A stretch of DNA of 64,000 bases from an uncultured virus (IMG/VR IMGVR_UViG_3300049744_000074) (IMGVR_UViG_3300049744_000074); one strand, 5' to 3'; counted from the stretch's first letter, positions 3,169-54,558 are shown. Notes: generated by a model not told the origin, from the letters alone. Numbers and translations: made by a program.

Positions 3169-3797
3169 GGTTGGTACTCCAAGATGTCGTCCACCAGTGC
3201 CGCCAGTTCCTTCCCTGCCGGGTTGTCGGGGGCGGTCTCAAATACAGTCTGCCCTTGGGCTGCTGATTCGGCCAAAGCCACCCGCTGGCAGATGGCGGTT
3301 CTGAGTACCGGAATCGGATACTCGGCGAGTGCCTCGGCCACGTCGCGGCCAAGGGCCGTATTTACGATTTTACGATTAATTACAAATGCAGATTTCAGGT
3401 TGGGCTTGAACACGGAAGCCTCGCCGAGCAAGTCCACGATCTCCTTGGCTGCCCACACGTCGTAGGGCGAGGGCTGCACTGGAATGAGCACAAGGTCGCT
3501 GGCCATGATCGCCGACCGTGCCACTTCGTAGACGCGAGGCGGTCCGTCAATTAAGACAAATTCGTAGCCTTTGGCAAGTGCGGGCAGTTCTTTGTGGATG
3601 GATGGTCGCGGCAACCCTGCCACTGGAAAAAGCGGGTCGCCCTTCCGCGATGCCGCCCAATCGAGGGCCGAACCCTGCGGGTCGGCGTCCACGAGCAAGA
3701 CCCGCTTCTTCCTCCTGGCCAGTGCATCGGCGACGTGGACGGCGAGCGTGGTTTTGCCCACGCCGCCCTTCTGATTTAGGAACCCAATGATCATCAT
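3165..3797 (-). CDS. parA: ParA family partition ATPase (short, type Ib-like)
   Basis: Deviant Walker A NQKGGVGKTT, LVDADPQGS and LIDGPP. Confidence 0.95.
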   Translation of the reverse strand: MMIIGFLNQKGGVGKTTLAVHVADALARRKKRVLLVDADPQGSALDWAASRKGDPLFPVAGLPRPSIHKELPALAKGYEFVLIDGPPRVYEVARSAIMASDLVLIPVQPSPYDVWAAKEIVDLLGEASVFKPNLKSAFVINRKIVNTALGRDVAEALAEYPIPVLRTAICQRVALAESAAQGQTVFETAPDNPAGKELAALVDDILEYQP

Positions 3798-3807
3798 TCT
3801 CCCTCCC

Positions 3808-3915
3808 CTGATTTACGATTTTGCAGAATTAGGATTCCACGATTAGCACGATTTACGGAAAGGGTCAATTGCAGATTTGCAGAGACACGACGCGTCGTAA
3901 TTCTGCAAATACAGA
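3808..3915. promoter_or_regulatory. Putative centromere/operator repeats upstream of parA
   Basis: Short AT-rich repeats (ACGATT x3, TGCAGA x3) in the parA promoter region. Confidence 0.45.
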
Positions 3916-4058
3916 CTCCTAAGCACTGCTTAGGGGAGATGTCTGACAATAAAATTCTTATCCGCGGGGAACGTGTGAAAACGTTGCTCACGGTCGATTT
4001 CAACACCGTTGAACTCGTCGAAAACCGTCGTCCGAAGGTCGTCGGAATACGGGAATCG

Positions 4059-28660: not shown

Positions 28661-30871
28661 ATGGCCGACGACTTCACGCTACCGGATCCGCCGCCGATCG
28701 ACCCTGCTACGGGCCGGTCGCTGCGGCACAATCCCGCCGACGAGGCGCGCGTGATCAACTACGTCAACGGCCTGATGCAGGAGGCGTACGAGGACCGCCG
28801 CGAGCTCGACGACCAGGCGGACCGCAACGCGCAGCTGTACCTGGGACGGGCGCAGCTGTGCCGGCCCAAGAACGGCATGACGGCCCACCAGGTGAACCGC
28901 ATCCGCAACGTGGTCATTGCCCACGTGCAGGTGCAGACCGAGGAAACGCCGCGGGTGAAGCTGGGCGCCCGCGAGACCGCCGAGCCGGCGCTGGCCTACT
29001 TGAACACGCAGGCCAGCATCGGGCTCAACGGCCCGGCCGCCGGCGCGATCAAGACGCTCCTGCTCAACGTCCGGCCCGAGTGCTACCAGACCACGGGCGC
29101 CGACGGCAGTCCCGTGGATCCCGTGCCCCTCGATGATGCCGAGCAGGCCGCGGTGCAGGCGGCGATCGACGCGGGCATCCTGCCGGCCGAGTCGCTGATC
29201 ATGATTAACGATCGATCGGCCGCCGATGCCATGCAGACGGTCTTCGACATCATGTGGGACGAGTGCCGCGCGGATTTCTACAACCGCGAGACCACGTTCC
29301 TCAAGACCGACATCGGCTGGCAGTTCCAGCTCTACGGCTTCGACGATCAGCGCAAGCAGCACACGCTCTCCAATCCGTCGCATCTGCTGGTCTTCATCGA
29401 TCCCAACTGCACCGACATCGGGGACGCGGCCCACGCCGAGCTGGCGCAGTTCGTCGATCTCAACCGCGCCAAGGCCCGCTATCCCGGGTACGCCCAGCAG
29501 CTGCAGGATTCCTCCACCGTGGGGCGCGGGCCCCAGGGGAGTATCGGGGATTTCCCGTTCCGGCTGCCGCGAACGCTGGAGCACACCGACTTCCGGCGCC
29601 GCATGGTGCCGGTGCGGCATTGCTGGATCCGTGACTGGCCCTTTCCGATGACGCCCGACGAGGCCGTCGAGGCCGGCCACGTCCACCAGGCCCTCGAGGA
29701 AACCTCGCCGGCCGTGCCAGCCGTGCTCGATGACGACGGGAACGAGCTGCAGCCGGCCGCTGAGGCGCAGACCCAGGCCGTGCTGCAGCTGGGCGCACCC
29801 GGAAGCGTCGCGACGAAAATCCAGCCGGGAGATCAGGGCTGGCCAACGCGCCCGGGCATCCGCGAGATCTGCATCGTCGGCAATGTCGTGGTATCCGATC
29901 GGGAGACCGAATACGGCGACATCCCGCTGCCGCACTACGTCAACCTTCCCAAGCCGCAGTCTCCCTACGGGATGGGCGAGCCCGAGGCCCTGGAGCCGCT
30001 GCAGACCGCCCTGGATTGCCTGCTCACCGACGTGATGAATTATTTCCATCACTTCGGCGCGCCGTCGGTGGCAATGCCGCTGTCGGTCTCGCAGCGCATG
30101 CCCGGCTTTGCGGAGGGAGCCTACTCCGCTCCCTTCGGCGAGATCTGGGACATTCCCGACGACCTGGTCCAGAAGTACGGCATCGCCAACCTGGTGGGCT
30201 TCATCCCGCCGCCGCCGCTGCCGGCGGACTTCTGGCGGTTCTTCGAGATGCTGCTCGACCTGCTCGACAAGGAAGGGCAGGTGACGGAGGCCCTCGAGGG
30301 CGAGGGGAAGGCGCACTGGTCGGGGGATCTCGCCGCACGGCTGCAGGAAGCGGCCCGCGGCCTGATCGCCTGGAAATCCCAGCGCATGGAGGAGGGGATC
30401 CAATACCTCGCGCGGCTGATGCTGCACACCATCAACACGCGCCTGAGCATCGACGACCTCACGCGCATGTGCAGCAAGTACCCCCGCCATGTCTGGGCCG
30501 CGATCCGCGAACGCCGCAAGGGCGTCGACACCGACATCACCGTCGAGATCGTCTCGGGATCCGGCCAGCTCCGCGAGAAGGGCAAGCAGGATGCCATGGT
30601 CCTCTGGTCCGGCGGGAAAGGCCCGCTCTCGGAGACGACCCTCCTGGAGCGCTTCGGCGAAGACCCGAAGCTTGAACTGCAGAACAAAGTGACCGAGGCC
30701 CAGGACAAAGCCAAGGCCGCGTCACAGATCCAGCAAGTTGCCCCGGCCCTCCTTCCACCGCCCGGACCGGGCGCACCTCCAGGTGCGCCGGTCCAGGCGG
30801 CTGGCGGAGCGCCGGCACCGATACCCGCGGGCACTGTGCCCGCGCCTGTCGCCGCCCCCGTGGCCGCGTAA
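28661..30871 (+). CDS. Portal protein (P22-like, with insertions)
   Basis: Position after terminase; VNRIRNVV, VFIDP and PYGMGEPEALEPLQ. Confidence 0.8.
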   Translation: MADDFTLPDPPPIDPATGRSLRHNPADEARVINYVNGLMQEAYEDRRELDDQADRNAQLYLGRAQLCRPKNGMTAHQVNRIRNVVIAHVQVQTEETPRVKLGARETAEPALAYLNTQASIGLNGPAAGAIKTLLLNVRPECYQTTGADGSPVDPVPLDDAEQAAVQAAIDAGILPAESLIMINDRSAADAMQTVFDIMWDECRADFYNRETTFLKTDIGWQFQLYGFDDQRKQHTLSNPSHLLVFIDPNCTDIGDAAHAELAQFVDLNRAKARYPGYAQQLQDSSTVGRGPQGSIGDFPFRLPRTLEHTDFRRRMVPVRHCWIRDWPFPMTPDEAVEAGHVHQALEETSPAVPAVLDDDGNELQPAAEAQTQAVLQLGAPGSVATKIQPGDQGWPTRPGIREICIVGNVVVSDRETEYGDIPLPHYVNLPKPQSPYGMGEPEALEPLQTALDCLLTDVMNYFHHFGAPSVAMPLSVSQRMPGFAEGAYSAPFGEIWDIPDDLVQKYGIANLVGFIPPPPLPADFWRFFEMLLDLLDKEGQVTEALEGEGKAHWSGDLAARLQEAARGLIAWKSQRMEEGIQYLARLMLHTINTRLSIDDLTRMCSKYPRHVWAAIRERRKGVDTDITVEIVSGSGQLREKGKQDAMVLWSGGKGPLSETTLLERFGEDPKLELQNKVTEAQDKAKAASQIQQVAPALLPPPGPGAPPGAPVQAAGGAPAPIPAGTVPAPVAAPVAA

Positions 30872-30991
30872 CGCTCGCTCTGTCGCCGAGCTCCAGGCTC
30901 CGCCCCTGCTGTGCCTGCCCCGCTCGAAGCGCCCGACAAGAAAACGAGCTTCGCGATCTCCCCCGAGGCCGGCTGCTCATGAAAGGTTGCC

Positions 30992-32044
30992 ATGTTCCCG
31001 AGCTTCTCCATCCGTCGTCACCGTTCCGGCCTGCTGGGCGCCGCCATTGGGGCTGCGCTGTGCAAGTTTGGGTGCTACCAGCACGCCCCGGACGATGCCG
31101 GTGGAGCTGCTCCCGCAACTCCCCCTCCCACTCCCGCCGCCCCCGCCGCTCCGGCTGCTACCGCTACGGCCGTGGATGCCGACGAGCGCGTCCTGGTCCG
31201 GGAAACTCCCGAGGCCACGCCGGCCGAGCCCGCCGCCCCTGCGGCGCCAGCTGCCGAAGCTCCACCCGCGGAGACGCCGGCCGAAACGCCGGCCGAGCCG
31301 CAGACGCCCGCGCCTGTCGCGCCGCCTGAGCAAGGCACGATGCTGCAGCTGCAGCAGGAGCTGGTCCAACTTCGCGAGGCGATCGCCGAACTGCGCCAGC
31401 CCGCCGCCCCATCCACCAATCCGGCCACACCGCCGGCAGATCCGGCCGCGGCGGCTGCCAAGGCGGCCGAGCTCCAGGCGCAGGCCGACGAGCTCGATCG
31501 CATGCTGGCCCCCGACTACGAGGTCGACCTGGCCCAGGACGCAAAGACGATCGCCAAGGCCGTCAAGTCGCTGCAGCAGTCGCTTGCCCAGGAAGTCAAA
31601 CGCCTGCGCGAAGAGACCACGCTCGACCGATCGGCGCGCGAGGAGAACGAACGCCGGCAGGCGTTCCAGCAGCTCGACTCCCAGGTGAAAGCCCGGGATC
31701 CCAAGGCGGATCTCAAGAGCCTTTACAACCAGGCGGCGCAGCAGGCCCGCCAGGAAGGGTACGCGGACCTGGGCCCCAAGGCCTTCGAGCACCGCACCGG
31801 CCAGCTCCTGCAGGCCCGCATCGATGCCCTGGCACCAGCTGCGCCACCGGCCGCACCCGCGGCCCCCGCGGCGGTCCCCAAGCCTGCCACCCCCACCCCG
31901 CAAGCACCCAAACCGCCAGTAGCGCCGATCACGCCGAACGGCGCCAACGCGCGAATCCCCGCTGTCGGCGGTAATCCCCGCGTCACCAATCCCGTGCTGA
32001 CCGAAGACGAAATCTACGAGAAGCACAGCAACCTGGTGCGCTGA
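30992..32044 (+). CDS. Scaffolding protein
   Basis: Pro/Ala-rich with coiled coil; located between portal and capsid. Confidence 0.65.
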   Translation: MFPSFSIRRHRSGLLGAAIGAALCKFGCYQHAPDDAGGAAPATPPPTPAAPAAPAATATAVDADERVLVRETPEATPAEPAAPAAPAAEAPPAETPAETPAEPQTPAPVAPPEQGTMLQLQQELVQLREAIAELRQPAAPSTNPATPPADPAAAAAKAAELQAQADELDRMLAPDYEVDLAQDAKTIAKAVKSLQQSLAQEVKRLREETTLDRSAREENERRQAFQQLDSQVKARDPKADLKSLYNQAAQQARQEGYADLGPKAFEHRTGQLLQARIDALAPAAPPAAPAAPAAVPKPATPTPQAPKPPVAPITPNGANARIPAVGGNPRVTNPVLTEDEIYEKHSNLVR

Positions 32045-33240: not shown

Positions 33241-33337
33241 TGCTCTCACGCGGCCGGGACCGTGGGGACGTCCAACCCCACGGCTCCCCGCCGTTTTTTC
33301 GTTCCTCTGACCCCCGCACATATTTCTGGAGAAAGCC

Positions 33338-33628: not shown

Positions 33629-33690
33629 CCGCCCCCCCCTTCGGCGCGGCACACAAACCGCCGCCACGCGCGGCAGAAAAGGAGTCTCCC

Positions 33691-36707: not shown

Positions 36708-38654
36708 ATGAGCACGGTAACCCTCGGGTCTAATACTTCGCCGATCGAGAACCTCGGATGGGTTGACAATAACCCGGGCCCCCCAGGCACCCGGAAATCA
36801 TTCAAGATTCACGGCGATACCCTCGAAATCTCTGTTTTTTCTTTTGCCACTGGCACCGCAAGTGCCTTGGTCTACGTAGACGGCGTGGCCCAAACGAGAA
36901 TGGATATTACGCACAGTGGCAGCTTCGACTATTACACGTTTTGGACCGGCACAGATGGGGATCACGATGTCGAGATCATCTATGACGGCGCCGGCACCAC
37001 GCCGTATTTTTGGACGCAAAATGTTCGAGTCACTTCCACGGGCGGCACGGCCGCTATCACCGCGTTTTACGATCAGGTGATGCCGCTCGTTCCTGGCGGG
37101 TCTCTCGATACCACAAATTTCCAGCATGAGGGCCCCACCACTACCGGCAGCAATAAAGTATTGAACTGCCATCGCCCGAACGCCACTATCCGCATTAAAG
37201 GGGCCATCACCGCGATTCAGGCGTTCATCTACTTTTTTGGTAGTGACACTGCCTATTTCCGCATCCACAAGAAGAATGGTGGGGGCACCTACGACATCAT
37301 CAGCGGAGACGATCCAATTGCGTGCGAGGCCACGCTGGGCAACGGATTCAACCTCCTGCCTGTCATGAGCGGCTTGGACGGAACAACCCAAGAATACTTG
37401 ATCGAGTACTATGTTTGCACGAACACGAGCGGATGCGGGATCAATGCCTTTGTGTTCTCGGGTAGTGGGATCGTAGCCCACGGATACGGCAGCACCTATC
37501 GGGACGCATATGCCTATCTGGGGGATTCCCTTGGGTCGCCTGATTCCGGATTGGCCAACGGCGAACTCTGGCCGTCCCTGATTTCCCGCCGCAACAACGC
37601 CGCTTGCGTTAACCTCTGCGTCGGCGGCACAAAAATTGGGGACATCGCCTCGACTGCGGAGTCCCTGCTGGGATCGTGCCCACAGACGATTACAAAAGTT
37701 TTTGGAGTCGGCGGTCGGAATGATGTATTTGGCGCGGTGGCCACTTCCACCACGCGCACCAACATGGGCACCTTGATAACGAACGTCCTGGGGGCCGTGA
37801 GTTGTGACTTTTACTTCCTGCTGATGCCCTATACGGGCGATTCGGCACAGAACGGTTCGGACGACACCTATATCCTCGCGGAGGAAAATGGTGTGGCCGA
37901 TATCGGTGATTCCCGAGTTCACACCTACGATCCCCGGCCGGTGCTGGTGCAGCCTGACGATTTTACGGTCGGCTTCACTGCCCATCTTGTGGCTTCGGGG
38001 AATCTGCACATCGCCGATCTCATCTCGCCGCTGGCCGATCCTGTCATCCCCACCGGCCTCGAGGCCACGGCCGCCAGCTCCTCGCAGATCGACCTGACCT
38101 ACGACGAGGACCCGGCCAATACTGCCTTCAAGGTCTACGGCTCGGACACGGAAGGCGGCAGCTACACGCTGCTCGACACCGTCGACCCCGGCGACTTCTA
38201 CAGCGAGACCGGCCTGAGCGCCAGCCAGACCCGCTGGTACAAGCTCAAGGGGAGCAACGCGCAGGGAGACTCCGATTTCTCGGATGCGGCCAGCGCCACC
38301 ACCGACAGCGACGGCGGCGACAGCGGCGGTGGCGGATCCGCGCCCCCCACGCCCACCGGCCTGGTCGTCTCGCCGCGTAACACGGGCCTGGGCGTCTCCT
38401 GGTCCGCCTCCGCGGGCGCCCAGGAATACGACCTCTACGTGAACGGCGTGCTCAATAAGACCGTCACCAGCACCTTCACGCGCGTCACCGGCCTGACCAA
38501 CGGCGTCAGCTACGCCATCACCGTCGTGGCGGTGAATGCCGACGGCGAGTCGGATCCAACCAGCGCCGTCAACGGCACCCCGGCGGCGCCCGCCGGCGGA
38601 GCGGCCGTCCGCATCGAAGAAAGCCCGGGCCTGGGCCTGGGCGTGATTGACTGA
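36708..38654 (+). CDS. SGNH/GDSL esterase plus two fibronectin-III domains (tail-associated)
   Basis: YLGDSL, NLCVGG, GGRND and ..AHL; PTGLEATA..YSETGL and PTGLVV..LTNGVSYAITVVAVN. Confidence 0.75.
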   Translation: MSTVTLGSNTSPIENLGWVDNNPGPPGTRKSFKIHGDTLEISVFSFATGTASALVYVDGVAQTRMDITHSGSFDYYTFWTGTDGDHDVEIIYDGAGTTPYFWTQNVRVTSTGGTAAITAFYDQVMPLVPGGSLDTTNFQHEGPTTTGSNKVLNCHRPNATIRIKGAITAIQAFIYFFGSDTAYFRIHKKNGGGTYDIISGDDPIACEATLGNGFNLLPVMSGLDGTTQEYLIEYYVCTNTSGCGINAFVFSGSGIVAHGYGSTYRDAYAYLGDSLGSPDSGLANGELWPSLISRRNNAACVNLCVGGTKIGDIASTAESLLGSCPQTITKVFGVGGRNDVFGAVATSTTRTNMGTLITNVLGAVSCDFYFLLMPYTGDSAQNGSDDTYILAEENGVADIGDSRVHTYDPRPVLVQPDDFTVGFTAHLVASGNLHIADLISPLADPVIPTGLEATAASSSQIDLTYDEDPANTAFKVYGSDTEGGSYTLLDTVDPGDFYSETGLSASQTRWYKLKGSNAQGDSDFSDAASATTDSDGGDSGGGGSAPPTPTGLVVSPRNTGLGVSWSASAGAQEYDLYVNGVLNKTVTSTFTRVTGLTNGVSYAITVVAVNADGESDPTSAVNGTPAAPAGGAAVRIEESPGLGLGVID

Positions 38655-38690
38655 ACCCTCACCCCCCGTCCTCCTTCCAGGAGCCATTCC

Positions 38691-39020: not shown

Positions 39021-39032
39021 CGGAGTCGCCCC

Positions 39033-39734: not shown

Positions 39735-39737
39735 GCC

Positions 39738-41780
39738 ATGGGCGCGAGGTCCGGCAGGAATTACGGCACGACGGGGATCATCGACCTGGATCCCAGCCCG
39801 ATCGGCACCATGCAGATCGAGGTCGACGTCTTTGGCCTGGCCGCGGCCCTGGCGGCGTCCATCGTCGACGTCACCGGTCCGGGCGCTAACTTCGCCAACA
39901 AGGTCTATGGCTCGAACGTGGGGGGCGGGGGAACGGTCACGGGAAAGGTCCAGGCCAACCAGCGACCCTTCCCCATCACCATGCGCAACCTGCAGGGCAC
40001 CCTGACCCACACCCTGCACGACAGCTGCACGATCGCCTTCCCGGTCCTGATCAAGGTCGTGAGCGTCAAAAAGGACAAGCGCAGCGCGGATATCTGGAAC
40101 GTCGAGGCGGAGTGGGTCAAGAACGGCGCGGAGACCGTCAACTGGGCGGGAACGGCGCCCACCTATGTCCAGCCTTCGCTGACCGCCGGCCAGCTCAACG
40201 CCGGCAGCGACCGCACCTCCGACCCGCGCGACCTGGCCCAGTCGGCGACCGTCAAGTACTTCCTCCCCACGCCGGCGGCCGGCACCAACTCCGGGTACAC
40301 GGATTTTGCGACGATCGCCGCGATCGACACCTTTATCTCCACCGCCGTGGCGCCGCGCGACGGGCTTAAGGCGGTCTCCTCGAGCTTCGTCCGCTTGGAT
40401 GATGCCGCCGGGATCCTGCTGGTCCGCTGGGCCTTCAACGACACCGTCGACAATTACCAGCTGCCCAACACCTGGACGTCGATCGATGACCAGGGCCTGC
40501 AGAGCGCGGCGAGCATCGGCGTGGTCAACGGCACGGGCAACACGCCCAGCGGGTTTGTGCTGCGCGCCGAAACCGTGCGCACCATCACCAACGGCACCGG
40601 CACGCACAGCAGCTACCTCACCGTCTCCCAGTTCGGGCTGCGCAACACCGTTGAGGATCTCGAGTTCCCCGGGACCTATACCGACATCGACGACAACGGC
40701 CTGCGCACCAGCGGCCGCAAAACCACCGTCCACGACACCAGCACGCCGCCTTCGGATCCCACGCCGCCCTCGGGCACCAAGATCGTCGGCAAGACGACGT
40801 TTAAGCTGACCAGCGCCGGCACCGCCAAGAGCTACACGGTCTGGGAATTCGGCACGCGCGACAGCAAGGACGAGTATGAGCTCTCCAACACCTGGGAGCA
40901 GGTGGATCCGCAGGGACTCGACAGCGCCGCGATGACCGCCACGGTCGACGCCGACCCGTCGCTGCCCGCCGGCTACGTCTCGCGCGGGCTGCGCACCAGC
41001 ACGATCACCGGGGTGGGCGGGCACGTGCTCAAGATCATCAGCGGCGGACTCTCCAGCACCGCCGACGACGTGCTCAACGCCGGCAACGTTTCCACTCGCT
41101 CGGCGCTGGAGGCCTTCACGCGCGTCACCCTGGAGCTCGTCGACACCACCGACTCGACCGAGGATGTCGCGGTCGACAACTGGGCGGCCTTCCAGGCCAC
41201 CGCGTTCGCCTACCGCATGACCGTCCGCAAGATCCGGCCGGGCAAGGCCCTGATTACCCGCGAGTTCCTGGATCCGGGCGTCGGCGTGGTCTCCGATGTC
41301 TACGGGCTGCCCCAGTACCAGGTCGCGCGCAACAATGACGGGACGGTCGAGGTCTTCGTCCGCCAGGTCCTCACGCGGGGCTCGGGCCTCAGCTGGCTGC
41401 GCCTGGGCCGGTCGAACCGCCGGCGGGTGGCGCGCGAGTTCACCCTGTCGCGCCTGTTCAGCGGCACGACCGTGCCCGATCACCAGGACCTGGTCGAGAC
41501 GTGCAACAACGCGACCTTCCTGGGTTTGCCCGAGGGCAGCGTGATGTACCTCTCCGGCAAGGTCCGCACCAATATTGCGCTCTCGGGCACTTACCCCTTC
41601 TGGATGGATTACCGGTTCCTCTGGATCTCCGGCGGGCATTACTCGATCGACGGGTGGGGCCCGGTCATCCACACCAGCGCCTCGATTAGCGCGGGCTGGG
41701 TGGACGCCTCGACCCTCACCGGCTCGGGCATCGTCGCGTCGGTTCCGGACGAAAGCGACTTTTCCCCTTTTCTGAGCTGA
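39738..41780 (+). CDS. Putative tail structural protein
   Basis: Thr/Gly-rich, with internal repeats (NTWTSIDDQGLQS / GTYTDIDDNGLRT / NTWEQVDPQGLDS). Confidence 0.55.
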   Translation: MGARSGRNYGTTGIIDLDPSPIGTMQIEVDVFGLAAALAASIVDVTGPGANFANKVYGSNVGGGGTVTGKVQANQRPFPITMRNLQGTLTHTLHDSCTIAFPVLIKVVSVKKDKRSADIWNVEAEWVKNGAETVNWAGTAPTYVQPSLTAGQLNAGSDRTSDPRDLAQSATVKYFLPTPAAGTNSGYTDFATIAAIDTFISTAVAPRDGLKAVSSSFVRLDDAAGILLVRWAFNDTVDNYQLPNTWTSIDDQGLQSAASIGVVNGTGNTPSGFVLRAETVRTITNGTGTHSSYLTVSQFGLRNTVEDLEFPGTYTDIDDNGLRTSGRKTTVHDTSTPPSDPTPPSGTKIVGKTTFKLTSAGTAKSYTVWEFGTRDSKDEYELSNTWEQVDPQGLDSAAMTATVDADPSLPAGYVSRGLRTSTITGVGGHVLKIISGGLSSTADDVLNAGNVSTRSALEAFTRVTLELVDTTDSTEDVAVDNWAAFQATAFAYRMTVRKIRPGKALITREFLDPGVGVVSDVYGLPQYQVARNNDGTVEVFVRQVLTRGSGLSWLRLGRSNRRRVAREFTLSRLFSGTTVPDHQDLVETCNNATFLGLPEGSVMYLSGKVRTNIALSGTYPFWMDYRFLWISGGHYSIDGWGPVIHTSASISAGWVDASTLTGSGIVASVPDESDFSPFLS

Positions 41781-41781
41781 C

Positions 41782-42636
41782 ATGGACTCGATCCCCGAAA
41801 CCTCCTCCGCGCCCGCGACGCCGGCGGCCCCCGAATCCGCCCCGCCCCCCCCACCCCCCCCACCGCCGCCGACCGCCACTTCGCCGGCGGCGCCGGACGT
41901 GGGAGGGGGAGATGGGGAGCTGCTCCGCCGGCTGGCGCTCCGGCTGGCGCTCCTGGGGGCCCAGCTGCTCGAGCAGAAGGCGGCGATCGCCGCGGCGCAG
42001 CGCAGGATCGAGGAGCAGCGCGCTGCCGCGGCGGCCGCGGGCAAGGAGCTGGGGGAACTGCGGGCCACGGTGCGCGAATCGGGGGAGAGCGTCTTCCGAA
42101 ATTTCCGGCAGCTGGCGGGGCGGGTGGAGGAACTCGACGGCGACGAGGAGCTGCCCAGCGACGAGGTCCTGCCGCGCGTGTTCGTGGCCGATGTCGACGC
42201 CGATGGGACTTTCACGGAGATGACCGTTGTCGGCGGCAGCCTGGTGAACTACACGGATGGCCGCGTCTGCAGCGATGTCGGAGATCCGTCCAAGGTGATC
42301 GACCTCGCCGGCAGCCAGGCGGTCCTCCTGGAAGTCGTCGATCCGCCGGACCATCGCTACGTGCGGATCCGCGGCGGCGAGCCGCTTATTGAGGTGTACC
42401 TGGACAAGGTGGGCGGAGCGGATGGCGATGGCACTACGGCGGCCACCTGGACCTATGACGCGTTTTCCGATGCGGCCATGACAGACCTGATTGAAGCGGC
42501 CGTGTCGCTGGCCACCCCCCGCGCCATGGCAGCGCCCTGCACGCCCGCCACTTCGGGGATCGGCCGGCGCACGGAAAGCGGGTTCCGGCTGCTCATCGCC
42601 TTCGAAGTCTTCCAGATGGGCTGCGACGACGAATGA
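41782..42636 (+). CDS. Hypothetical structural protein (coiled coil plus beta domain)
   Basis: Operon position; coiled coil. Confidence 0.55.
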   Translation: MDSIPETSSAPATPAAPESAPPPPPPPPPPTATSPAAPDVGGGDGELLRRLALRLALLGAQLLEQKAAIAAAQRRIEEQRAAAAAAGKELGELRATVRESGESVFRNFRQLAGRVEELDGDEELPSDEVLPRVFVADVDADGTFTEMTVVGGSLVNYTDGRVCSDVGDPSKVIDLAGSQAVLLEVVDPPDHRYVRIRGGEPLIEVYLDKVGGADGDGTTAATWTYDAFSDAAMTDLIEAAVSLATPRAMAAPCTPATSGIGRRTESGFRLLIAFEVFQMGCDDE

Positions 42637-46605: not shown

Positions 46606-49600
46606 ATGGTGCGAATCGGTGACATCGACCCGGGGTCGCTGCTGACGGTGTCGGCCGCCGATCTCGCTGCGGCCCAGCCGATCGCCCCGGCCGCGGCCGC
46701 TCCGGGAATCGCTCCGGTACAAATGTATAATACATCTGTACCTTCCGGCGGCACGGTCAGCATGCGGGACCTGCAGGCGGCGCCGACGATCAACGCGTGG
46801 GGCGGTGGCGGGGACTCGATCTCCCTGGCGGACCTGCACGCCGCGGCGCCGCTCAACCTCGACCAGCAGCTGGACGTCGAAGGGCGCAGCTACTGGAAGA
46901 ACCGCATCGATCCGATGGCCGCCCTGCCCGACGACCAGGCCAAGGCGCTCACGCCCGACCTCTCCCTCTACGTCCATCACTTTTCCAACGCGCCCGACGC
47001 GGACCAGGCGTTTGGCGCCCTGGGCACGCGCGGAATCGCGCTTTCAGAGGCCGACAAGCAGTCGCTGCTCCACCAGCTGCAGCGGGCGAATGCGGCGTTC
47101 GATCTGGCAGCCATCCAACAGGGGCGCGGACCCACTGCTGAAGCGGCCAGGGCGCAGCTACGCGCAGCCTCTGCGGCCGGCGAGGCTCAGACAGAATCTC
47201 CCGTGGGAATCGCCGCGTCCCAGCTTGCGCACGGCATCTCCAACGTTGCCGCGAAATTCGTTGTCAATCCGGCACTGCAGGCGCTTGGCGTGGAGACCGC
47301 TGACGCACAGCGAGAGCGCGTGCTCCAGGACCAGGCCCTCCAGGAAGCCCAGGCGCAGCAGTACCCGATCACCGCCGCGGCGGCCAAGGGGGTCGGATCG
47401 GTGGCATCGCCCGAATCGCTCGCGGGCATAGCGATCACCGGGGGGCTCGGGGAGCTGGCGGGGCCCGCGACGCGCCTGGGCCGCGCGGCGCTGACCGCGG
47501 CCGAGGGCGGGGGATACGGCGCCGGCGTGATGCCCGTGCAGCAGGCGGCCGAGGGGCAGACGGTCACGCCGGCCGACGTGGCGCGGGATTTCGCGGTGGG
47601 GGCGGGCGGGGCGCTGGCCGGCAAGGCCGGGGGCAAGCTCGTTGAGGGGCTCGCGGGCGGCACGGCCCCGGCGGTGCAGGCGGGCGCGAAGTTCGTGGGC
47701 GGAGCGGCCACGTCCGGCGCGGTGAACGTCGGCGCGGGTGCCGGGATCGCCGCGAGCCAGGGACGCGCGTATTCCTCTGCCGACGCGGTGCGCGATTTCA
47801 TCTCCGGCGCGGCCATGCATGTGCCTGGCGGGCTGCCGGAAGCCCTGGCGACCCTGCGCGCGGCCCGCGACCGCGTGCGGTCGATCGACCCCAACAACTC
47901 GCTGGTGGTGCGGCTCGACAGTGAGATCGCCCGCCACGCGCTGGAGACCGGCCATGGTGATCAAGCAGGCGGCGGCGCCGTTCCTGAAAGTGCTGGACGA
48001 GGAGGACCAGGACCGGCGCCTGGGGGAAATCCCGACGCTGCTCGAGGTGCGGAACAATCCCCGCTGGCATCGCCCGCGGCGGAAGCTGACGCTGGAGGAG
48101 ATCATCGAGATCTGCCGTCCGTACCCGCGCCGCAAGCCTTCACGCCGGAGCAAGAAGCGCATAGCGCGTTGAAGAACGGGCCCGCGTCGCTCCCGCCGGT
48201 ACCGGCGGGCATGGTCCGTTTCTTCCACGGCGGAGTGCCCGGCGACGGCCCGCGGTGGCTCACGCCCGATTATCGCTACGCCCTGGGCTATGCCGAGAAG
48301 AGCGGTCACGGCGCGGGCGTGCAGTACATCGACGTGCCGGAGAATCATCCGAGCTTGTCCAAGGAATATGACGACACCGGCACCAACATGCCGGCGCCGT
48401 TCGCTTCGTTCGAGGCCCCCAGCGAGCTTACCCACGGGCTCAAGCCGGTGGCGGAGTCGACGCCGCGGCTGTCGATCGCGCGTAAGACCGGGCTGACGCC
48501 CGAGCAGACGCGCGTCCAGGATGAGCTGATCGACCGCGTGAATTCCCCCGAGGCCGACGCGATCTACGACCAGATCCCCGACGCGTACGGCGGCAAGGTG
48601 ATCGGCACTGACATTGCCCGCTTCATGCACCCCGCCTACCACACCGTCGAAGGGCGGCGCGAGTTCACGGCTGCAACTTCCCGCGCCGCGAGCGTGTATG
48701 CATTTGACCGGCTGCGCCGCGCGATCGAGAAGCCTCCGGTCAGGCCCGACGGCGAGCGGCCGCTCCTGATGTTCACGGCCGGCGGCGTCGCCTCCGGCAA
48801 GAGCTCCGCGATCGGGCCCGAGACCCTCGAGCGCGCCGACCTGGTTTCCGACGGACAGATGAAGAACCCGGCGCAGGCGATCAAGGAGATCAACCTGGCG
48901 CTGCAGCACGGCTGGGACGTCGACGTCCGCTACGTGCACCGGCCTTTCCCCCTGGTCGTCGAGGGAGCCATCCATCGCGGAATCACCACCGGCCGGTGGG
49001 GCCCGCTCTCCGAGCTACCGGACCTGCACATGCAGGCGCAGGATTCCTTTGACCAGGTCGCGCGGCATTTCGCCGGCAATCCGCACGTCGATTCCAAGAT
49101 CGTCGTGAACGAGGGAACGGCCCAGACGCCGGCGGCGCCGCGGCTGGCCAATCGGTCGGACCTCGCAAAATCGGGCGTTTTACGCTATAGTGACAGAAGT
49201 GCTCTCGAAAGGTCGGTCCATGAAAAGTACGCCCAAGCCCGCGCCTCCGGCAAATACCCCGCCGAACTTCTCGACCGGCTCGGCCAAGGCCTCCATGACG
49301 CCGGAGCAGCTGCACCGGCGCCGGCAGCGCAGCCAGCAGCTCGACCAGGCGATCTTGAACACGCTGGCCCGGACCAGCAAGGCCCAGTAAGCCAGGAATC
49401 CAGCCATGGCAGCCAAGCAATCGAAGCAGGCCCCCCCGCCGCCGCCGAGCAAATCGGTGCTGGCGGTCTACCGCCACGAGCCCAACGATCCCCAGGGCAA
49501 CCAGAAGCGGTCCAGCCAGGCCCTGTCGCGGATGATGGAGCACGTCGTGCAGCAGAACGCCGCGCCCGCAGCGTCGCCGGGATCCAAGAAGCCCTCAAGT

Positions 49601-52600
49601 CCTTCGGCGGAGTAACTCTCCACGACGATGGGCAGAACCTCCACCTGGTGATGCCCAACCGGACGCGAATCCCCTGGCATCTCACCGAGCGCATCGAGCC
49701 GGCCGCCGACGAAATCCACAACTATCTGCAGAGCGCCCGCGTCGCCAATGACGGCAAAGCGGAATTTACGGCCAACGACGGCCGCACGCTGTCGCTGCCG
49801 GGTGATGACGCCGGCTGGAAGGCGCTGCCGGAAGCTGACCGCGCCGCAATCCTCGACAAGTTCATCGTCCGCGGCCGCTATGACGGCAACACCCGCGCGA
49901 TCACCACCACCCACCGCGTCGGCGAGGATCACACCGTCGGCGCCGAGGAAGTCTTCCACGCTGAAGCGCACGGTCTCAAGGATGCCGATCGCCAGACGTA
50001 CATCCGCATGATCAACCGCTACGACAACGAGGATGCCGCGTTCCACGCGTTCATGCGGAGCCGCGGTAGCCGCGCCAAGTACTTCAAACGCATGCGCGAG
50101 GGGACGATCTACCTGCCGCCGGCGTTCGACCGCTATTTCACGCCGCGCGAGCGTGCGGCCGGCAAGCTGCTCGAGGCCGCCCAGAGCGAGGGCGTGCTGA
50201 TGTCGGATGCGGAGTTCGAGCAGTTCCGCAATGATATGGGCGGGCTGCATCCCGACGTGCTCAAGGATTACCAGGTGCGGGGGAAAAACGGCAAGCTGGT
50301 GCTGGAGAAGGACGGCACCCCCAAGCTCACGCGAGAAGGGAAGCTGCTGGCGGAGTTTGTGGACGAGGATGGCTACTCCAATGCGACCGCAGACATGGAT
50401 CCGGCGAAGGTCGACCGGTACCAGGACCGCGTGATCCGCGAGCTGCTGATGACCAAGGAACAGAAGATCCAGGCGGCGGCCGAGCACTACATGGATCCTC
50501 AGGCCCCGCCGGAGCTTCGCGAAGCCGCGGCCCAGGTGCTGGGGCGTCCCCTGGACGAGGATATCCCTTTCGCGGTGCGCAAGCGCGGCGAGGAGGAAGG
50601 CGGCGAGCAGCTCACCCTCGCCGGCGAGGCCCAGGGGCGGGAGACCGTGGGGGGCACGGGCAAGCTCTTCGAGACGCGGGCCGAGCGGCCGCGGCAGCCG
50701 GTCTACCGGGAATCCGCCGCGCCGATCGGCGCGGAGCGCTTCGGCGTCGACGCCCACGATATCCGAGTCGCATCGGCCTTCAGCGAGGAGGATCCGTCGC
50801 CGGCTTTTGCCTATGGGGTCAAGCAGGCGCTTGCGGGGAAGCGTGTGACGGCGGTGAAGGGCATGACGCCGGCGGAGGGCCGCGAGGCGCTGACGGGCGC
50901 TAAGGCCGCGGCCGAGGGAATGTCGCCGGTGCAGCGCGAGCATGCGGCGCAGCCGGCCGGAGAGGCGCCGGTCCAGGGGCAGGCCCGGATGTTCGCCGTG
51001 CGCAAGGATGGAACGGAAGGGCCCAGCGACGAAACGAAAGGCCCGGAATCCGAGACGAAGGTAGCGCCCAACGTGACGCGCTCCGCGGCGATCCTGGCGG
51101 CGGTGAAGACCCTGAAGTCGGCCGACCCGGAGATCTTCGATGCGCCGCCGCAGACCTCGGAGGTGCCAATGCGCGTGTCGGCCGCGGACATGCAGGCGGC
51201 GATCGACCAGGTGGGGACGGACTGGGCACTGGATCCGGCGGCCATGGAAAAGTACCGGCTGCCGGTCGACCAGCTGGCGCGCAAGCTGCTGTCGATCGCC
51301 CGCCGGCAGGGATCGTTCGATGCCGCGCTCGATTACCTCCACGATCCGCCGGCGCGCGACACGGGCATCAAGTCGCGGATCCGCTCCATCACCGAATCGC
51401 GCGACCCCGAGAAAATCATCCTCTCGGCCAAGGATGCCATCCGGCAGGCCATGCGGCAGCGCGAGCAGGGTCGGACCGAAGGCCTGCGGGAAGCGGTGAA
51501 GCTCCGCCAGCAGTTCCTGGAGGAGGCCTCCAGGTACCTGACGCCCGAGGAACGCGGGCCGCTGATGCGGGACCTGGCGTCGATCGGCAATGAGTCGGAC
51601 CTGTACGCGCGGCTGGAAAAGGTCTATTCGGCGTTCGACCGCGCCCAGAAGCGGCAGGCGGTTAACGATGTGCGCGACCTGATCCGCGGCGCCGACACCA
51701 AGCACCTGCGGCCGGAATTCAAGTCGGCGATGGAGGCCCTCACCGGCGAGCTCGACGATGCGAACATGTCCGAACGCACCCGCGCCCGCGCGGAGAGCCT
51801 GGCCAGCCACGTGCAGAGCCTGAGCGACGAGGAACGGGCGGGGCTGCCCGCCCGGACCCAGGCGCTCCTGGAGCGGATGGGCAAGGAGGCCCTCGATACC
51901 TTCTCGGTCGAGGAGCTCCACCAGTTGGGGGATTCCATCCGCGCCATCGTCACCCAGAACCAGCTGAAGAATCGCCTGATCGTCGGCAAGCACCTGCGGG
52001 CGATCGCCAAGGTCGAGAAGTCGGTCGTCGACGAGGTGATGAAGCACAACAAGCCGCTGGGCCTGGTGGGTGAGGAGGGGAGCCGCAAGGAGCTGGCGGA
52101 CAAGGGACTTGCCTCCCGGCTGGTGGAATTCACCGATTCGCCGGAGGTGCTGGCGGTCAGTGCCGGCGGCGAGGGCGGGGAGTTGCACAGCCATCTCTAC
52201 GAGCAGCTGCGGCACGCCGAGAACGGGCACCTGGGTATGCTTCGCAAATACCGCGGAGAGATGCAGGAGCTGCTGGCCAAGCACAAGATGACCCCGCAGC
52301 AGATCATCGACTGGCGGGAGAAGACGCGCAAGGTGGAGCTCTCCGACCTGCCGGCGAAACCGGTCAAGCGCCCCGCGGGCCGCGGCGGGCTCGATGCCCT
52401 GGACCAGGCGCAGCAGGCGGCGCAGGAGCGCGCCGACATGCTGGAGACCTTCGGCGCGTCGCCGGAGGAGCTGGCGAAGGAAGGGGCCGCAGCGGCCGCG
52501 GCCGAGTCGGTGGAGCCGCCGGCGGCCGCCGAGCCGCGCACGCTGGAGATCACCGGGCCCGAGGCCCTCTCCGCGTGGCTCTACGACCAGAACCCCGACG

Positions 52601-54558
52601 CCCGCGAGAAGCTGCTGGCCAACCCGGTGAACCTGGAGCGATTCGCGGGCCAGTCGACGCTGAATCGCACGCTGATGCCGGTGGACCTGCGCGCGATCGA
52701 GGCGACGCTTACCCCGTTCGAGCGCGAGCTGGGCGAGACGATCCTGCGCCAGAACCGGGAGCTGGGCGAGGAAATCGGGAAGATCCACGTGCTGCTCAAG
52801 GGCTACGACATCACGCGCGAGGAGAACTATTTCCCGCTGCTGACCGACCAGAAGCAGAAGCGGCGCGTGCTCGACGAGCTGGCCACCCAATACGCGGATA
52901 AATGGCTGGAGCAATCGGGCTTCCTGAAAGAACGCGTGCTGCATAACGTGCCGATACTGCTCTCCGACGCCCTGGACACGCACCTGTGGCATCTCCGGCA
53001 GTCGGTCAGTTTCGTCAACAAGGCCATTCCGGTGCGCAATGCCCGCGTGCTGCTGGGGGCGCCCAAGGTGCGTGAGGTGATCGACGGCCACATCGGGCGG
53101 ACCTGGACGCCGCGGATGGAGCGGCTGCTGAAGGATTTCTCCGGGGCGGAGCTGGGCGCCCGCACCGAGGCGGAAATGCTGGCGGCCAAGATCGCGCGCA
53201 ACGCGGCCGCGGCGACGCTGGGGCTGCGGCCGACGACGGTGGCCACCAACTTCATCGGGGCGCCGCTGGGGCTCATGACGCAGATGACGCCCCAGGAATC
53301 GCGCACCCTGGTGAAAAAGTGGATCAACCTCAAGGCCAACACGATCGACGCCGGCAAGTACTTCGCCGATCGGATCGCGCCCCACAATGCCTATCTGGCG
53401 GATCGGTACGATCCCCAGGGCGCGGTGCACCGGGTGGCGGTGATCGCCGGCGAGGAGGCGGCCGCCGGCGCCGGCGGATCCGCGCCCGGGATCCCGGGCG
53501 CCAAGACCGTCGCCGGGCAGCGCTGGCGCGACTTCCAGGAATGGTCCCTCTCCTGGATGAACCATGCGGAGCGGGCGTCGGTGGTGGCGGCGCATCGGGC
53601 GATCAGCGAGCTCAACCCCGAGTGGAGCGACGCGGAGGTCAGCGACCACGTCGAGAAGATGGTGCGGCGCACGCAGAATGCGATCAGCTCCCTGGACATG
53701 TCCGAGTTTCTGCGGCAGACCAAGCGGCAGCCCTTCCTCGGGCTGGCCTTCATGTTCACCAACCAGGCGGCCAAGCTCAGGGACACGCTGCGGCTGGCGG
53801 CGCTGCGCTACACGCACTCGCATCGGACCCCGGCCGACAAGGCCCGGATCTCGGCGACGGCGGGCCTGGTCTTTTCCTCGGCCGTGGTGATGCCGGCGGT
53901 GGTGCGGGCGCTGTGGGGGCAGGTGCGGCAGGGATTCCGGGACCAGGAGGACGCCAAGACGCGCTCGGCCGGGCAGCTGCTCGCCGGCGGCGTGGCGGAC
54001 CTGGCGGATGTCGCCCATCCGGTGATCGGGGACCTGGCGCGGGTGCTGACGCGCGGGGATGTCGGTGACTCGGTCAACAGCCGGGCGCTTGCGCAGATTG
54101 CCCAGGCCCTGCAGGGCACTTATTCGGCAGTCGCCAATCTGGGGGAACCGGACCAGCGGCGGCAGCGGCAGGTCCTCCCGGCGATCTACCGGGTGATCTC
54201 GAACCTGTCGCGCGGTGTGGCGACGTTCGCCGGCATTCCCCTGGATGCCCCGCTGACGGCCGCCGAGGGGGTGGGCCGGGCGATTACCGGGCGGCCCCCG
54301 GAGTTCGCCCTGCAGCAGGAGCTGCACCGCCTCCAGAAGCGGACCTATCCGGGCGCGGTGGATCCGCGGAGCCGCTACGGGGACCTGTCGCCGCAGGAGA
54401 TCCGCCGGCTGCGGACGCTGACGGCGATTACCGGGCAGATCGGCCGCGTGCGGCAGGCGGCCGCGTCGGGGCGCATCGACCAGGGGCGGGCGGAGAAGTC
54501 GATCGAGCAGCTGCTCGCCGCGGCGGGGCGGTCCCCCGTAATTTCAACCGGGAGTTGA
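46606..54558 (+). CDS. Giant polyvalent internal virion protein (ART-like, zeta-toxin-like kinase and degenerate metallopeptidase domains)
   Basis: RFFHGG..WLTPDYRYALGYA..YIDVP; MFTAGGVASGKSS..DG..VRYVHRP..R...GR; RGRYDG..EEVFH; long helical C-terminus. Confidence 0.8.
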   Translation: MVRIGDIDPGSLLTVSAADLAAAQPIAPAAAAPGIAPVQMYNTSVPSGGTVSMRDLQAAPTINAWGGGGDSISLADLHAAAPLNLDQQLDVEGRSYWKNRIDPMAALPDDQAKALTPDLSLYVHHFSNAPDADQAFGALGTRGIALSEADKQSLLHQLQRANAAFDLAAIQQGRGPTAEAARAQLRAASAAGEAQTESPVGIAASQLAHGISNVAAKFVVNPALQALGVETADAQRERVLQDQALQEAQAQQYPITAAAAKGVGSVASPESLAGIAITGGLGELAGPATRLGRAALTAAEGGGYGAGVMPVQQAAEGQTVTPADVARDFAVGAGGALAGKAGGKLVEGLAGGTAPAVQAGAKFVGGAATSGAVNVGAGAGIAASQGRAYSSADAVRDFISGAAMHVPGGLPEALATLRAARDRVRSIDPNNSLVVRLDSEIARHALETGHGDQAGGGAVPESAGRGGPGPAPGGNPDAARGAEQSPLASPAAEADAGGDHRDLPSVPAPQAFTPEQEAHSALKNGPASLPPVPAGMVRFFHGGVPGDGPRWLTPDYRYALGYAEKSGHGAGVQYIDVPENHPSLSKEYDDTGTNMPAPFASFEAPSELTHGLKPVAESTPRLSIARKTGLTPEQTRVQDELIDRVNSPEADAIYDQIPDAYGGKVIGTDIARFMHPAYHTVEGRREFTAATSRAASVYAFDRLRRAIEKPPVRPDGERPLLMFTAGGVASGKSSAIGPETLERADLVSDGQMKNPAQAIKEINLALQHGWDVDVRYVHRPFPLVVEGAIHRGITTGRWGPLSELPDLHMQAQDSFDQVARHFAGNPHVDSKIVVNEGTAQTPAAPRLANRSDLAKSGVLRYSDRSALERSVHEKYAQARASGKYPAELLDRLGQGLHDAGAAAPAPAAQPAARPGDLEHAGPDQQGPVSQESSHGSQAIEAGPPAAAEQIGAGGLPPRAQRSPGQPEAVQPGPVADDGARRAAERRARSVAGIQEALKSFGGVTLHDDGQNLHLVMPNRTRIPWHLTERIEPAADEIHNYLQSARVANDGKAEFTANDGRTLSLPGDDAGWKALPEADRAAILDKFIVRGRYDGNTRAITTTHRVGEDHTVGAEEVFHAEAHGLKDADRQTYIRMINRYDNEDAAFHAFMRSRGSRAKYFKRMREGTIYLPPAFDRYFTPRERAAGKLLEAAQSEGVLMSDAEFEQFRNDMGGLHPDVLKDYQVRGKNGKLVLEKDGTPKLTREGKLLAEFVDEDGYSNATADMDPAKVDRYQDRVIRELLMTKEQKIQAAAEHYMDPQAPPELREAAAQVLGRPLDEDIPFAVRKRGEEEGGEQLTLAGEAQGRETVGGTGKLFETRAERPRQPVYRESAAPIGAERFGVDAHDIRVASAFSEEDPSPAFAYGVKQALAGKRVTAVKGMTPAEGREALTGAKAAAEGMSPVQREHAAQPAGEAPVQGQARMFAVRKDGTEGPSDETKGPESETKVAPNVTRSAAILAAVKTLKSADPEIFDAPPQTSEVPMRVSAADMQAAIDQVGTDWALDPAAMEKYRLPVDQLARKLLSIARRQGSFDAALDYLHDPPARDTGIKSRIRSITESRDPEKIILSAKDAIRQAMRQREQGRTEGLREAVKLRQQFLEEASRYLTPEERGPLMRDLASIGNESDLYARLEKVYSAFDRAQKRQAVNDVRDLIRGADTKHLRPEFKSAMEALTGELDDANMSERTRARAESLASHVQSLSDEERAGLPARTQALLERMGKEALDTFSVEELHQLGDSIRAIVTQNQLKNRLIVGKHLRAIAKVEKSVVDEVMKHNKPLGLVGEEGSRKELADKGLASRLVEFTDSPEVLAVSAGGEGGELHSHLYEQLRHAENGHLGMLRKYRGEMQELLAKHKMTPQQIIDWREKTRKVELSDLPAKPVKRPAGRGGLDALDQAQQAAQERADMLETFGASPEELAKEGAAAAAAESVEPPAAAEPRTLEITGPEALSAWLYDQNPDAREKLLANPVNLERFAGQSTLNRTLMPVDLRAIEATLTPFERELGETILRQNRELGEEIGKIHVLLKGYDITREENYFPLLTDQKQKRRVLDELATQYADKWLEQSGFLKERVLHNVPILLSDALDTHLWHLRQSVSFVNKAIPVRNARVLLGAPKVREVIDGHIGRTWTPRMERLLKDFSGAELGARTEAEMLAAKIARNAAAATLGLRPTTVATNFIGAPLGLMTQMTPQESRTLVKKWINLKANTIDAGKYFADRIAPHNAYLADRYDPQGAVHRVAVIAGEEAAAGAGGSAPGIPGAKTVAGQRWRDFQEWSLSWMNHAERASVVAAHRAISELNPEWSDAEVSDHVEKMVRRTQNAISSLDMSEFLRQTKRQPFLGLAFMFTNQAAKLRDTLRLAALRYTHSHRTPADKARISATAGLVFSSAVVMPAVVRALWGQVRQGFRDQEDAKTRSAGQLLAGGVADLADVAHPVIGDLARVLTRGDVGDSVNSRALAQIAQALQGTYSAVANLGEPDQRRQRQVLPAIYRVISNLSRGVATFAGIPLDAPLTAAEGVGRAITGRPPEFALQQELHRLQKRTYPGAVDPRSRYGDLSPQEIRRLRTLTAITGQIGRVRQAAASGRIDQGRAEKSIEQLLAAAGRSPVISTGS
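47954..48172 (+). CDS. Nested +1-frame ORF A (72 aa)
   Basis: GGAG 7 nt upstream; GC3 bias switches to this frame. Confidence 0.65.
   Translation: MVIKQAAAPFLKVLDEEDQDRRLGEIPTLLEVRNNPRWHRPRRKLTLEEIIEICRPYPRRKPSRRSKKRIAR
49220..49390 (+). CDS. Nested +1-frame ORF B (56 aa)
   Basis: GAAAGG RBS; TATAGT -10 at 49186; GC3 bias. Confidence 0.55.
   Translation: MKSTPKPAPPANTPPNFSTGSAKASMTPEQLHRRRQRSQQLDQAILNTLARTSKAQ
49406..49615 (+). CDS. Nested +1-frame ORF C (69 aa)
   Basis: AGGA RBS; starts 15 nt after the ORF B stop; GC3 bias. Confidence 0.55.
   Translation: MAAKQSKQAPPPPPSKSVLAVYRHEPNDPQGNQKRSSQALSRMMEHVVQQNAAPAASPGSKKPSSPSAE

Follow-up and report, generated by a model that had tools for sequence, protein, structure and literature searches.

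Small genes lying inside larger ones in another reading frame are already established in phages, where Rz1 sits in Rz, and in giant bacterial genes, where comS sits in srfAB. Here we describe three small open reading frames (ORFs A, B and C) in the +1 frame of a giant gene of an uncultured virus (IMG/VR IMGVR_UViG_3300049744_000074); the window is the whole 64,000-nucleotide (nt) stretch that was analysed, with a GC content of 63%. According to a spanin survey, the embedded form of Rz/Rz1 occurs in 182 of 677 phages (PMC6139136). Like A, B and C, the embedded spanin gene is a small phage gene wholly inside a larger one, in the +1 frame, with its own start, and is usually missed by gene callers. 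However, the spanins are a membrane protein and a lipoprotein cooperating in lysis, whereas here three candidate genes share a 2650-codon virion polyvalent gene whose own frame is a featureless linker; as judged from their sequences, A, B and C carry neither a lipobox nor a signal sequence. The gene comS is described as a small protein gene in a distinct frame inside the giant multi-domain gene srfAB of Bacillus subtilis (PMC12915044). In that case the host gene encodes a bacterial non-ribosomal peptide synthetase and ComS is a competence regulator, whereas our host gene is a phage virion gene.

Polyvalent proteins (Iyer et al. 2017, PMC5512222) are multi-domain products of late or virion genes; they carry enzymatic "weapon" domains such as ADP-ribosyltransferase (ART) domains, and it is supposed that they are packaged and then injected. 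The giant ORF has what marks such a protein, namely several unrelated effector-type domains and a virion/late gene setting. In the main text of Iyer et al. (PMC5512222) the words "overlapping" and "linker" occur 0 times and "zeta" once, and nested genes are not described there. Among the literature matches listed, with supplements outside the search, there was no natural case of a zeta toxin with overlapping or alternative frames, and for a natural antitoxin gene in an alternative frame within a toxin gene the matches listed held only synthetic designs or unrelated work. Zeta kinases are held by small cognate proteins, as in epsilon/zeta and PezAT, where the antitoxin is a separate upstream gene. 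The window resembles these systems in that a zeta-type P-loop kinase is linked to a small neighbouring gene, but it differs in that the small ORF runs in another frame across the 3' end of the kinase and that the kinase is one domain of a giant protein. No upstream antitoxin homologous to epsilon or PezA was found: A, B and C had no Pfam, NCBIfam or PADLOC match, and B and C lie at or past the 3' end of the domain. What appears to be new here, from the sequences compared, is that in all six loci examined the zeta-like domain contains a +1 ATG close to its 3' end, with signs of selection on both frames.

Three +1 frames in the linkers of a giant gene

The features of the giant gene are as follows.

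46606..54558, plus strand: giant polyvalent protein gene, a single ORF of 2650 amino acids (aa) in a virion gene block
46606..47949, plus strand: conserved N-terminal block, ending ...EIARHALE (alignment A1)
47954..48172, plus strand, +1 frame: nested ORF A, 72 aa, isoelectric point (pI) 11.1, Shine-Dalgarno (SD)-like GGAG at 47943-47946, filling the left linker
48184..48450, plus strand: ART-like domain, ~90 aa, conserved, with a weak likeness to the ART-superfamily fold
48550..49290, plus strand: zeta-toxin-like P-loop kinase domain (PF06414; PDB 6eph; homologues P0001-P0004)
49163-49191, plus strand: promoter candidate TCGCAA-N17-TATAGT, agreeing with the consensus at 8 of 12 positions and situated where GC in the ORF is lowest
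49220..49390, plus strand, +1 frame: nested ORF B, 56 aa, pI 11.8, SD-like GAAAGG at 49207-49212
49406..49615, plus strand, +1 frame: nested ORF C, 69 aa, pI 10.1, SD-like AGGAA at 49393-49397
49558..54558, plus strand: conserved C-terminal block, beginning RRARSVAGI (RRA.S..GI as shared with the orthologues)

An earlier note on this DNA had placed three +1-frame ORFs within the 2650-aa ORF and predicted that ordinary annotation would miss them. Both statements held: the ATGs are at 47954, 49220 and 49406, the ends at 48172, 49390 and 49615, each ORF lies wholly inside 46606..54558 on the same strand, and ordinary annotation misses all three. Because three ORFs with ribosome-binding sites sit out of frame in the giant gene, the same DNA very probably encodes two proteins, and on sequence grounds we consider A, B and C to be probably genuine same-strand overlapping genes, that is, true dual coding. 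The codon signature, the start signals and the swap of the cargo were observed directly, and so was the fact that a B-type +1 gene recurs where other zeta-like modules occur. That the small genes are translated, and what they do, we infer.

The zones holding the nested ORFs were compared with the orthologues of the giant ORF, P0006 (2487 aa, 60% identity) and P0007 (2311 aa, 52%). These share the N and C blocks with the window, and their middles are unrelated to the window's. Since the orthologues keep the N and C blocks and differ in the middle, both zones are linkers flanking a swapped cargo. In the window the cargo has two domains, an ART-like domain of ~90 aa followed by the zeta-toxin-like kinase. 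Zone A occupies the linker that leads from the N block to the ART-like domain, ORF A ending 12 nt ahead of the latter, and zones B and C occupy the one that leads from the kinase to the C block. The position beside the two domains and the physical tie to a swappable cargo module were thus as the earlier note had supposed. Because the nested genes flank the cargo, and B overlaps the zeta-like domain, small genes and cargo would be inherited and exchanged as one unit. In the giant frame the linkers are acidic, disordered and Gly/Ala/Pro-rich, consisting of 85-88% G/A/P/S/E/Q/D/R. Terminal repeats or target-site duplications were sought around the zones, and nothing beyond chance-length matches was found.

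The start signals are GGAG-7nt-ATG for A, AAAGG-7nt-ATG for B and AGGAA-8nt-ATG for C, so ribosome-binding sites do stand 7-8 nt upstream of each ORF, in SD-like motifs that resemble those of the window's real genes. In the giant ORF an SD-like motif precedes 6 of 39 +1-frame ATGs, and 4 of these 6 lie within the zones, while the main-frame methionines M536 (48211) and M1016 (49651) have none. ORF B would measure 66 aa if its start is the GTG at 49190. The earlier note had proposed a mini-operon of B and C right after the zeta-like domain. ORF C starts 15 nt past the stop of B, and B overlaps the 3' end of the domain.

Under the dual-coding reading, A, B and C would each be initiated at their own SD and ATG and read in the +1 frame of the giant gene's late mRNA, with B and C arranged as a two-gene operon. 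Ribosomes making the 2650-aa polyvalent protein would read the same DNA in frame 0 as a disordered linker. Selection in the zones would act on the small proteins, and the giant frame would be merely stop-free. It would have to stay open because its continuity is ancestral, as the orthologues indicate, and because the downstream blocks of the giant ORF are without start signals of their own.

Programmed +1 frameshifting near 47950 or 49200 would instead produce truncated isoforms ending at the +1 stops. Ahead of ATG 47954 the +1 frame has no stop as far back as 47738, and at the second site it is open from ~49108; an SD-like motif stands just upstream of each switch, as frameshifting would have it. 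Yet there is no frame-0 stop and no obvious slippery or hungry codon at the switch, each site has a full SD-spacer-ATG, C begins right after B's stop, and an Rfam scan of the region found nothing. We regard frameshifting as highly improbable.

Codon usage of the nested zones

Codon usage was scored with a log-likelihood model trained on confident genes of the window, and 11 gene segments (~6900 codons) served as controls. Over the whole giant ORF, GC at the three codon positions (GC1/2/3) was.73/.49/.85. Main-frame GC3 fell to.35-.57 in 47926-48165 and ~49216-49635, and in these zones main position 1, equivalent to the third position of +1 codons, climbed to.85-.97. In the +1 frame, G/C-ending codons accounted for 63/72 (A), 51/56 (B) and 60/69 (C), in contrast to 32/72, 32/56 and 37/69 in the main frame; relative to 0.853 the main-frame deficit has a binomial P of 1e-15 (A), 4e-7 (B) and 4e-10 (C). 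The GC3 check therefore confirmed the frame-specific shift claimed before, to A/T-ending codons in the main frame and G/C-ending codons in the +1 frame. The two top segments scoring +1 over main were 47950-48136 (82 bits) and 49195-49564 (109 bits), whereas the highest in the controls reached 20.9 bits. The onset of the signature, 47950, lies beside ATG 47954, and its end, 49564, beside the start of the C block at 49558. Among the six frames, +1 was the best in most windows over 47926-48165 and 49246-49605.

A synonymous-only score was also calculated. In bits per codon, the +1 frame scored 0.63 (A), 0.62 (B) and 0.46 (C), compared with 0.61 +/- 0.20 for true frames, and the main frame scored -0.66, -0.39 and -0.54, compared with -0.68 +/- 0.28 for off-frames. 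The scores match these references, so the +1 frame uses synonymous codons like a true frame and the main frame like an off-frame, and because the test conditions on amino acids, amino-acid composition is not the cause of the signature. Other Gly/Ala-rich parts of the giant ORF retain high GC3, and the ART-bearing giant ORF of the related locus L005 shows no such codon shift outside its first codons; the shift is therefore not a general property of linkers. Pavesi et al. (2013, PMC3744397) take the frame with codon usage nearer that of the genome to be constrained or ancestral, and by this rule the small ORFs would be the constrained frame in the zones and the giant frame the passenger. The linker position claimed for the hidden genes stands, but its logic is inverted: instead of small genes being fitted into an already optimised linker, the +1 frame would wholly shape the sequence of the zones, with the giant frame just free of stops.

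Two other sources of the signature were considered. An antisense gene was rejected, as minus-strand frames score below +1 in most zone windows. A compensated frameshift in a once in-frame segment is unlikely, since it would need two indel pairs 220-330 nt apart, it also leaves unexplained the SD and ATG at the switch points, and it would place the stop of B within the frame taken to be ancestral. In other parts of the window, frame switches fall at stop codons and correspond to ordinary neighbouring genes with chance-open shadow frames. One weaker +1-over-main segment (47122-47209, 16.8 bits) is located where the N block varies.

The signature could also be an artefact of assembly indels, of Gly/Ala/Pro-rich linker composition or of chance. 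The amino-acid make-up of the linkers accounts for the high main-frame GC1 and GC2, the length of the ORFs is unremarkable, and two aberrant contigs exist. One contig of run X20 has a 2-nt insertion after 48113, within ORF A, in a single low-depth row, and one low-depth contig of X11, with just 21 letters on one side, skips 45 nt at 49264-49310 within ORF B, in frame for both frames; with 85% likeness and little reliability, both probably do not belong to this phage. On the other side, 24 rhizosphere or soil runs, none of them listed as an RNA run, contain the stretch, and five runs contain every sampled word. In contigs of four further runs (X11, X15, X17 and X20) every letter agrees at 47925-48255, 47924-48179, 47588-47965 and 49563-50221, and a contig spanning 49414-49752 differs by one letter. 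As independent runs agree in sequence, the nested frames are not an assembly error. Together with the synonymous-only test, which removes composition, the high GC3 of other linkers and of L005, and the gap between the control maximum and 82 and 109 bits, this largely refutes an artefact, which is barely credible as an explanation.

Nested frames at other zeta-like domains

We examined six further loci, L006 and L012-L016, from four lineages, whose zeta-like domains are 40-47% identical. In all six, the 3' end of the domain contains a +1 ATG, which arises where the bases TAT-G occur within the conserved ..GG.YSY(D/A) motif, and in five of them GGAGG or GAGGGAG stands 10-11 nt upstream. Codons at the start site end in A/T in 27 of 30 cases vs ~28% expected (P=2e-12, or 2e-6 counting three lineages); the main-frame GC3 of the six loci is.63-.81, and the +1 start is built from rare codons. 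The +1 ORFs continue for 60-92 aa after the start and exceed the main frame in GC3 (.71-.73 vs.42-.56 in the four tabulated loci). In L006, L013 and L014 the best or second-best +1-over-main segment of the whole ORF is at the nested ORF. Conservation of the +1 ORFs had been named as a check by the earlier note. The recurrence of a +1 ATG in six of six loci gives comparative support to the B type; A and C were not seen in any relative examined.

The pair L013 and L014 (72% aa identity, nested ORF of 75 codons) allowed a comparison of both frames. The ratio of non-synonymous to synonymous rates (dN/dS) in the nested ORF was 0.35 for the +1 frame, close to the 0.40 of the main frame; in the zeta domain it was 0.15 for the main frame and 1.5 for the +1 off-frame control. 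Main-frame dS dropped from 1.05 in the zeta domain to 0.43 in the nested segment. Differences at main positions 1 and 3 numbered 16:13 in the segment vs 35:100 in the zeta domain (Fisher p=0.0035). A search for further members of this clade returned those two alone.

In L006 a 224-nt tandem duplication (offset 211) occupies the 3' end of the zeta-like ORF (L006:3530-3964). The nested +1 ORF lies at 3526..3717, and the duplication gives a free-standing 65-aa paralogue at 3731..3928, whose TTG start overlaps the TGA stop of the main ORF. Between the copies, 7 codons differ synonymously and 14 non-synonymously in the +1 frame (dN/dS 0.28), and in the main frame 2 differ synonymously and 21 non-synonymously, including a stop. 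The small protein of L006 had no match in cultured phages. L015 and L016 differ by 1 of 47 nt in part of the nested ORF and by 163 of 600 (27%) across the zeta domain, by alignment count. At L015:3170-3330 there is an internal tandem repeat that L016 lacks; the repeated segment encodes ..AFLHIGKEKSS.. when read in +1 and ..AYWQ.EVE.A.. when read in the main frame. Duplications of the dual-coding stretch thus seem to recur (L006, L015). Near position 2920 of L016, a 1-nt deletion in the zeta-like domain relative to L015 joins the N-terminal part of the giant ORF to the frame of the nested ORF; it could come from a sequencing error, mark a pseudogene or represent a natural fusion.

L012 is the closest to the window in layout. 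Its giant ORF is open across the whole 5.9-kb locus (>1950 codons), and L012:3684-4097 holds an SD-led +1 ORF of 137 aa in a Gly/Ala/Arg-rich linker after the zeta-like domain, scoring 39.6 bits, with a GC3 of.80 vs.47 in the main frame. Its product is helical-looking and W/Y/E-rich, belongs to no Pfam or PHROG family and has no match in cultured phages. The start context of ORF B, GA(A/G)AGG-N7-ATG, is common to L012 and derives from an AGG Arg and a CAT His codon.

Could A, B and C be relics, that is, cargo captured together with neighbouring small genes or gene ends, with the giant frame open by chance and the +1 ORFs unexpressed and not yet decayed? Given the +1 peptides, the main frame was open by chance in 26%, 59% and 36% of resamplings (A, B and C), so read-through would be cheap; the cargo was truly swapped between orthologues, A and C are orphans, and a similar stop-loss route to embedded genes has been proposed for spanins (PMC6139136). 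Nevertheless, A, B and C are each intact, SD and ATG included, and by codon score they are on a par with live genes. Zeta-like and ART-like domains are usually found inside giant ORFs and not in operons with small genes, and B-type +1 ORFs persist across lineages just 40-47% identical. Moreover, a weaker main-frame likeness to P0006 begins already at ~49456, ahead of the C block. As this linker likeness exceeds shuffles, the stretch just ahead of the C block is probably old, and part of zone C is apparently orthologous to P0006; yet the main-frame GC3 counted there is ~0.4, which makes little sense unless the +1 frame remains constrained. Relics are the main rival to dual coding, and we consider them rather unlikely.

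Several points weigh against dual coding. The length of the ORFs is not significant: given the main-frame peptide, +1 was open in 99%, 96% and 33% of resamplings (A, B and C), and 19% of +1 stop-to-stop stretches in real genes reach at least 70 codons. Main-frame linkers resemble those of P0006 slightly above shuffles (p=0.01 left, p=0.001 right), so some constraint may act on the giant frame too. For L013 vs L014 both frames look equally constrained, and the nested segment compared with the rest of the gene gave Fisher p=0.12, which is not significant; the position bias in L006 is based on 30 substitutions. Eight zeta matches that were partial or at most 35% identical (L007 with 60% over 35 aa only) lay outside the comparison. 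Nested peptides of different lineages show no similarity beyond that imposed by the main frame, and the co-linear motif shared by B and L012 beyond the domain, LDQAILNTLA vs IDKTVLAAMA, is weak (p=0.016), with no likeness in the main frame at that place (p=0.21). The runs with this phage gave no usable variants or single-nucleotide polymorphism pattern from the fragmentary contigs of X11, X15, X17 and X20.

The ORFs themselves add to these points. Over its first ~24 codons B shares its DNA with the conserved helix that ends the zeta-like domain at its C terminus, and C does so with the conserved C block over its last ~17. The three peptides are basic and hydrophilic, their complexity is rather low, and the single-sequence model of ORF A is weak (predicted local distance difference test (pLDDT) 69.5, predicted template modelling score 0.23). 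ORF A had 0 matches among 1.84 billion representatives, the sole database match of ORF C was itself (P0005), and none of the three has a family in Pfam, PHROG, NCBIfam or PADLOC. A promoter had also been proposed at 49163-49191. The sequence is present, and GC is 0.56 at 49150-49249, but a sigma-70 scan does not call it; under relaxed rules it is the only plus-strand site in the ORF (two registers), compared with 1.3 +/- 1.3 in shuffles, so the candidate seems weak and not beyond shuffles. The label "ART-like", finally, is based solely on weak fold matches of a predicted model.

Further searches for relatives of the nested ORFs gave the same picture. No homologue of A, B or C was found by tblastn against cultured phages, within the window or in 11 related loci. 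In the protein Atlas, ORF A led to unnamed clusters below the recognition mark and ORF C to nothing.

Cargo, genomic setting and possible roles

The zeta-like kinase assignment is sound: PF06414 scores 31 bits on the sub-sequence against a cutoff of 22.3, the domain matches the Zeta_1 toxin of PDB 6eph at 4.4e-7, and it contains the Walker A motif GGVASGKS. It had no match in cultured phages. The ART-like domain is 47-57% identical in L001 and L002 and has no sequence match in Pfam or PDB. Its model has a pLDDT of 65, and the best structural match is Arr, which is weak (VIA: Z 4.5, root-mean-square deviation 4.0, 81 residues aligned). The top VIA rows are mostly ART-superfamily entries; Foldseek gave nothing at E<=0.001, its top row being PARP16 at E 1.2. 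In alignment A3 of the domain, H19, Y36/Y40 and E81/E85 are invariant, and by our own reading of the sequence they may form an ART catalytic triad.

The earlier note had proposed a built-in antitoxin system, a special case of dual coding in which A would neutralise the ART-like domain and B and C the zeta-like kinase in the producing cell. The position fits, with A 12 nt before the ART-like domain, B over the end of the zeta-like domain and a +1 ORF placed likewise in six loci. The soundness of the zeta-like assignment, the co-inheritance with the cargo and the general restraint of zeta kinases by small cognate proteins also agree with it. In contrast, the nested peptides show no likeness to antitoxin or immunity families, including epsilon/PezA-like ones, and A, B and C had no similarity near related domains. 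Known epsilon genes are separate and upstream, the nested peptides are not conserved between lineages as the kinase domain is, and they look largely disordered and basic. A built-in antitoxin system is thus doubtful. The narrower proposal, that a zeta-like cargo carries a cognate inhibitor in the +1 frame over the 3' end of the kinase, with A and C as further cargo-specific partners, is similarly unlikely. Within the dual-coding reading, our best functional guess, offered only tentatively, is a putative accessory protein that would restrain the zeta-like kinase, or accompany it, up to packaging.

The giant ORF belongs to a virion gene block. Its C-terminal part matches phrog_28077 at 1.7e-24, and two further genes lie upstream of it.

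28661..30871, plus strand: portal-like gene (phrog_156 at 1.4e-10)
36708..38654, plus strand: tail-like gene (phrog_7440 at 1.1e-8)

At the 3' end of the portal-like gene, a +1-over-main segment (30752-30848, 20.9 bits) is overlapped by an ORF at 30738..31688. A 358-aa ORF at 33262-34338 is a chance upstream extension; there the codon model sees two genes, one in the +1 frame at ~33320-33640 that runs into a stop and one in frame 0 that starts only near 33700. Long minus-strand ORFs at 36798-42215, 47158-48975 and 49468-54327 (1805, 605 and 1619 aa) are antisense shadow frames with poor codon scores. No cultured phage resembling the giant-ORF region was found by blastn against phages. Close relatives at the DNA level were found neither in viral_contigs (queries: C block, portal protein and alignment A1) nor in genome_contigs (query: alignment A1), and metagenome_contigs yielded just L003-L005, which are distant, ART-bearing loci.

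Phages are thought to inject giant polyvalent proteins as a payload that disarms the host. If the zeta-like cargo does carry its own inhibitor, toxin and antidote would be welded together in the same nucleotides, inseparable by module-shuffling recombination, and a toxin-antitoxin pair would exist inside a single ORF. The recurrent small gene over the end of a zeta-type kinase is a testable candidate for keeping a toxic cargo harmless during production, and the nested zones offer a clean natural system for two proteins sharing one stretch of DNA. If linkers routinely hide small genes, phage gene counts would be too low, gene callers would systematically miss a class of proteins, and the linkers of polyvalent proteins would be more than spacers.

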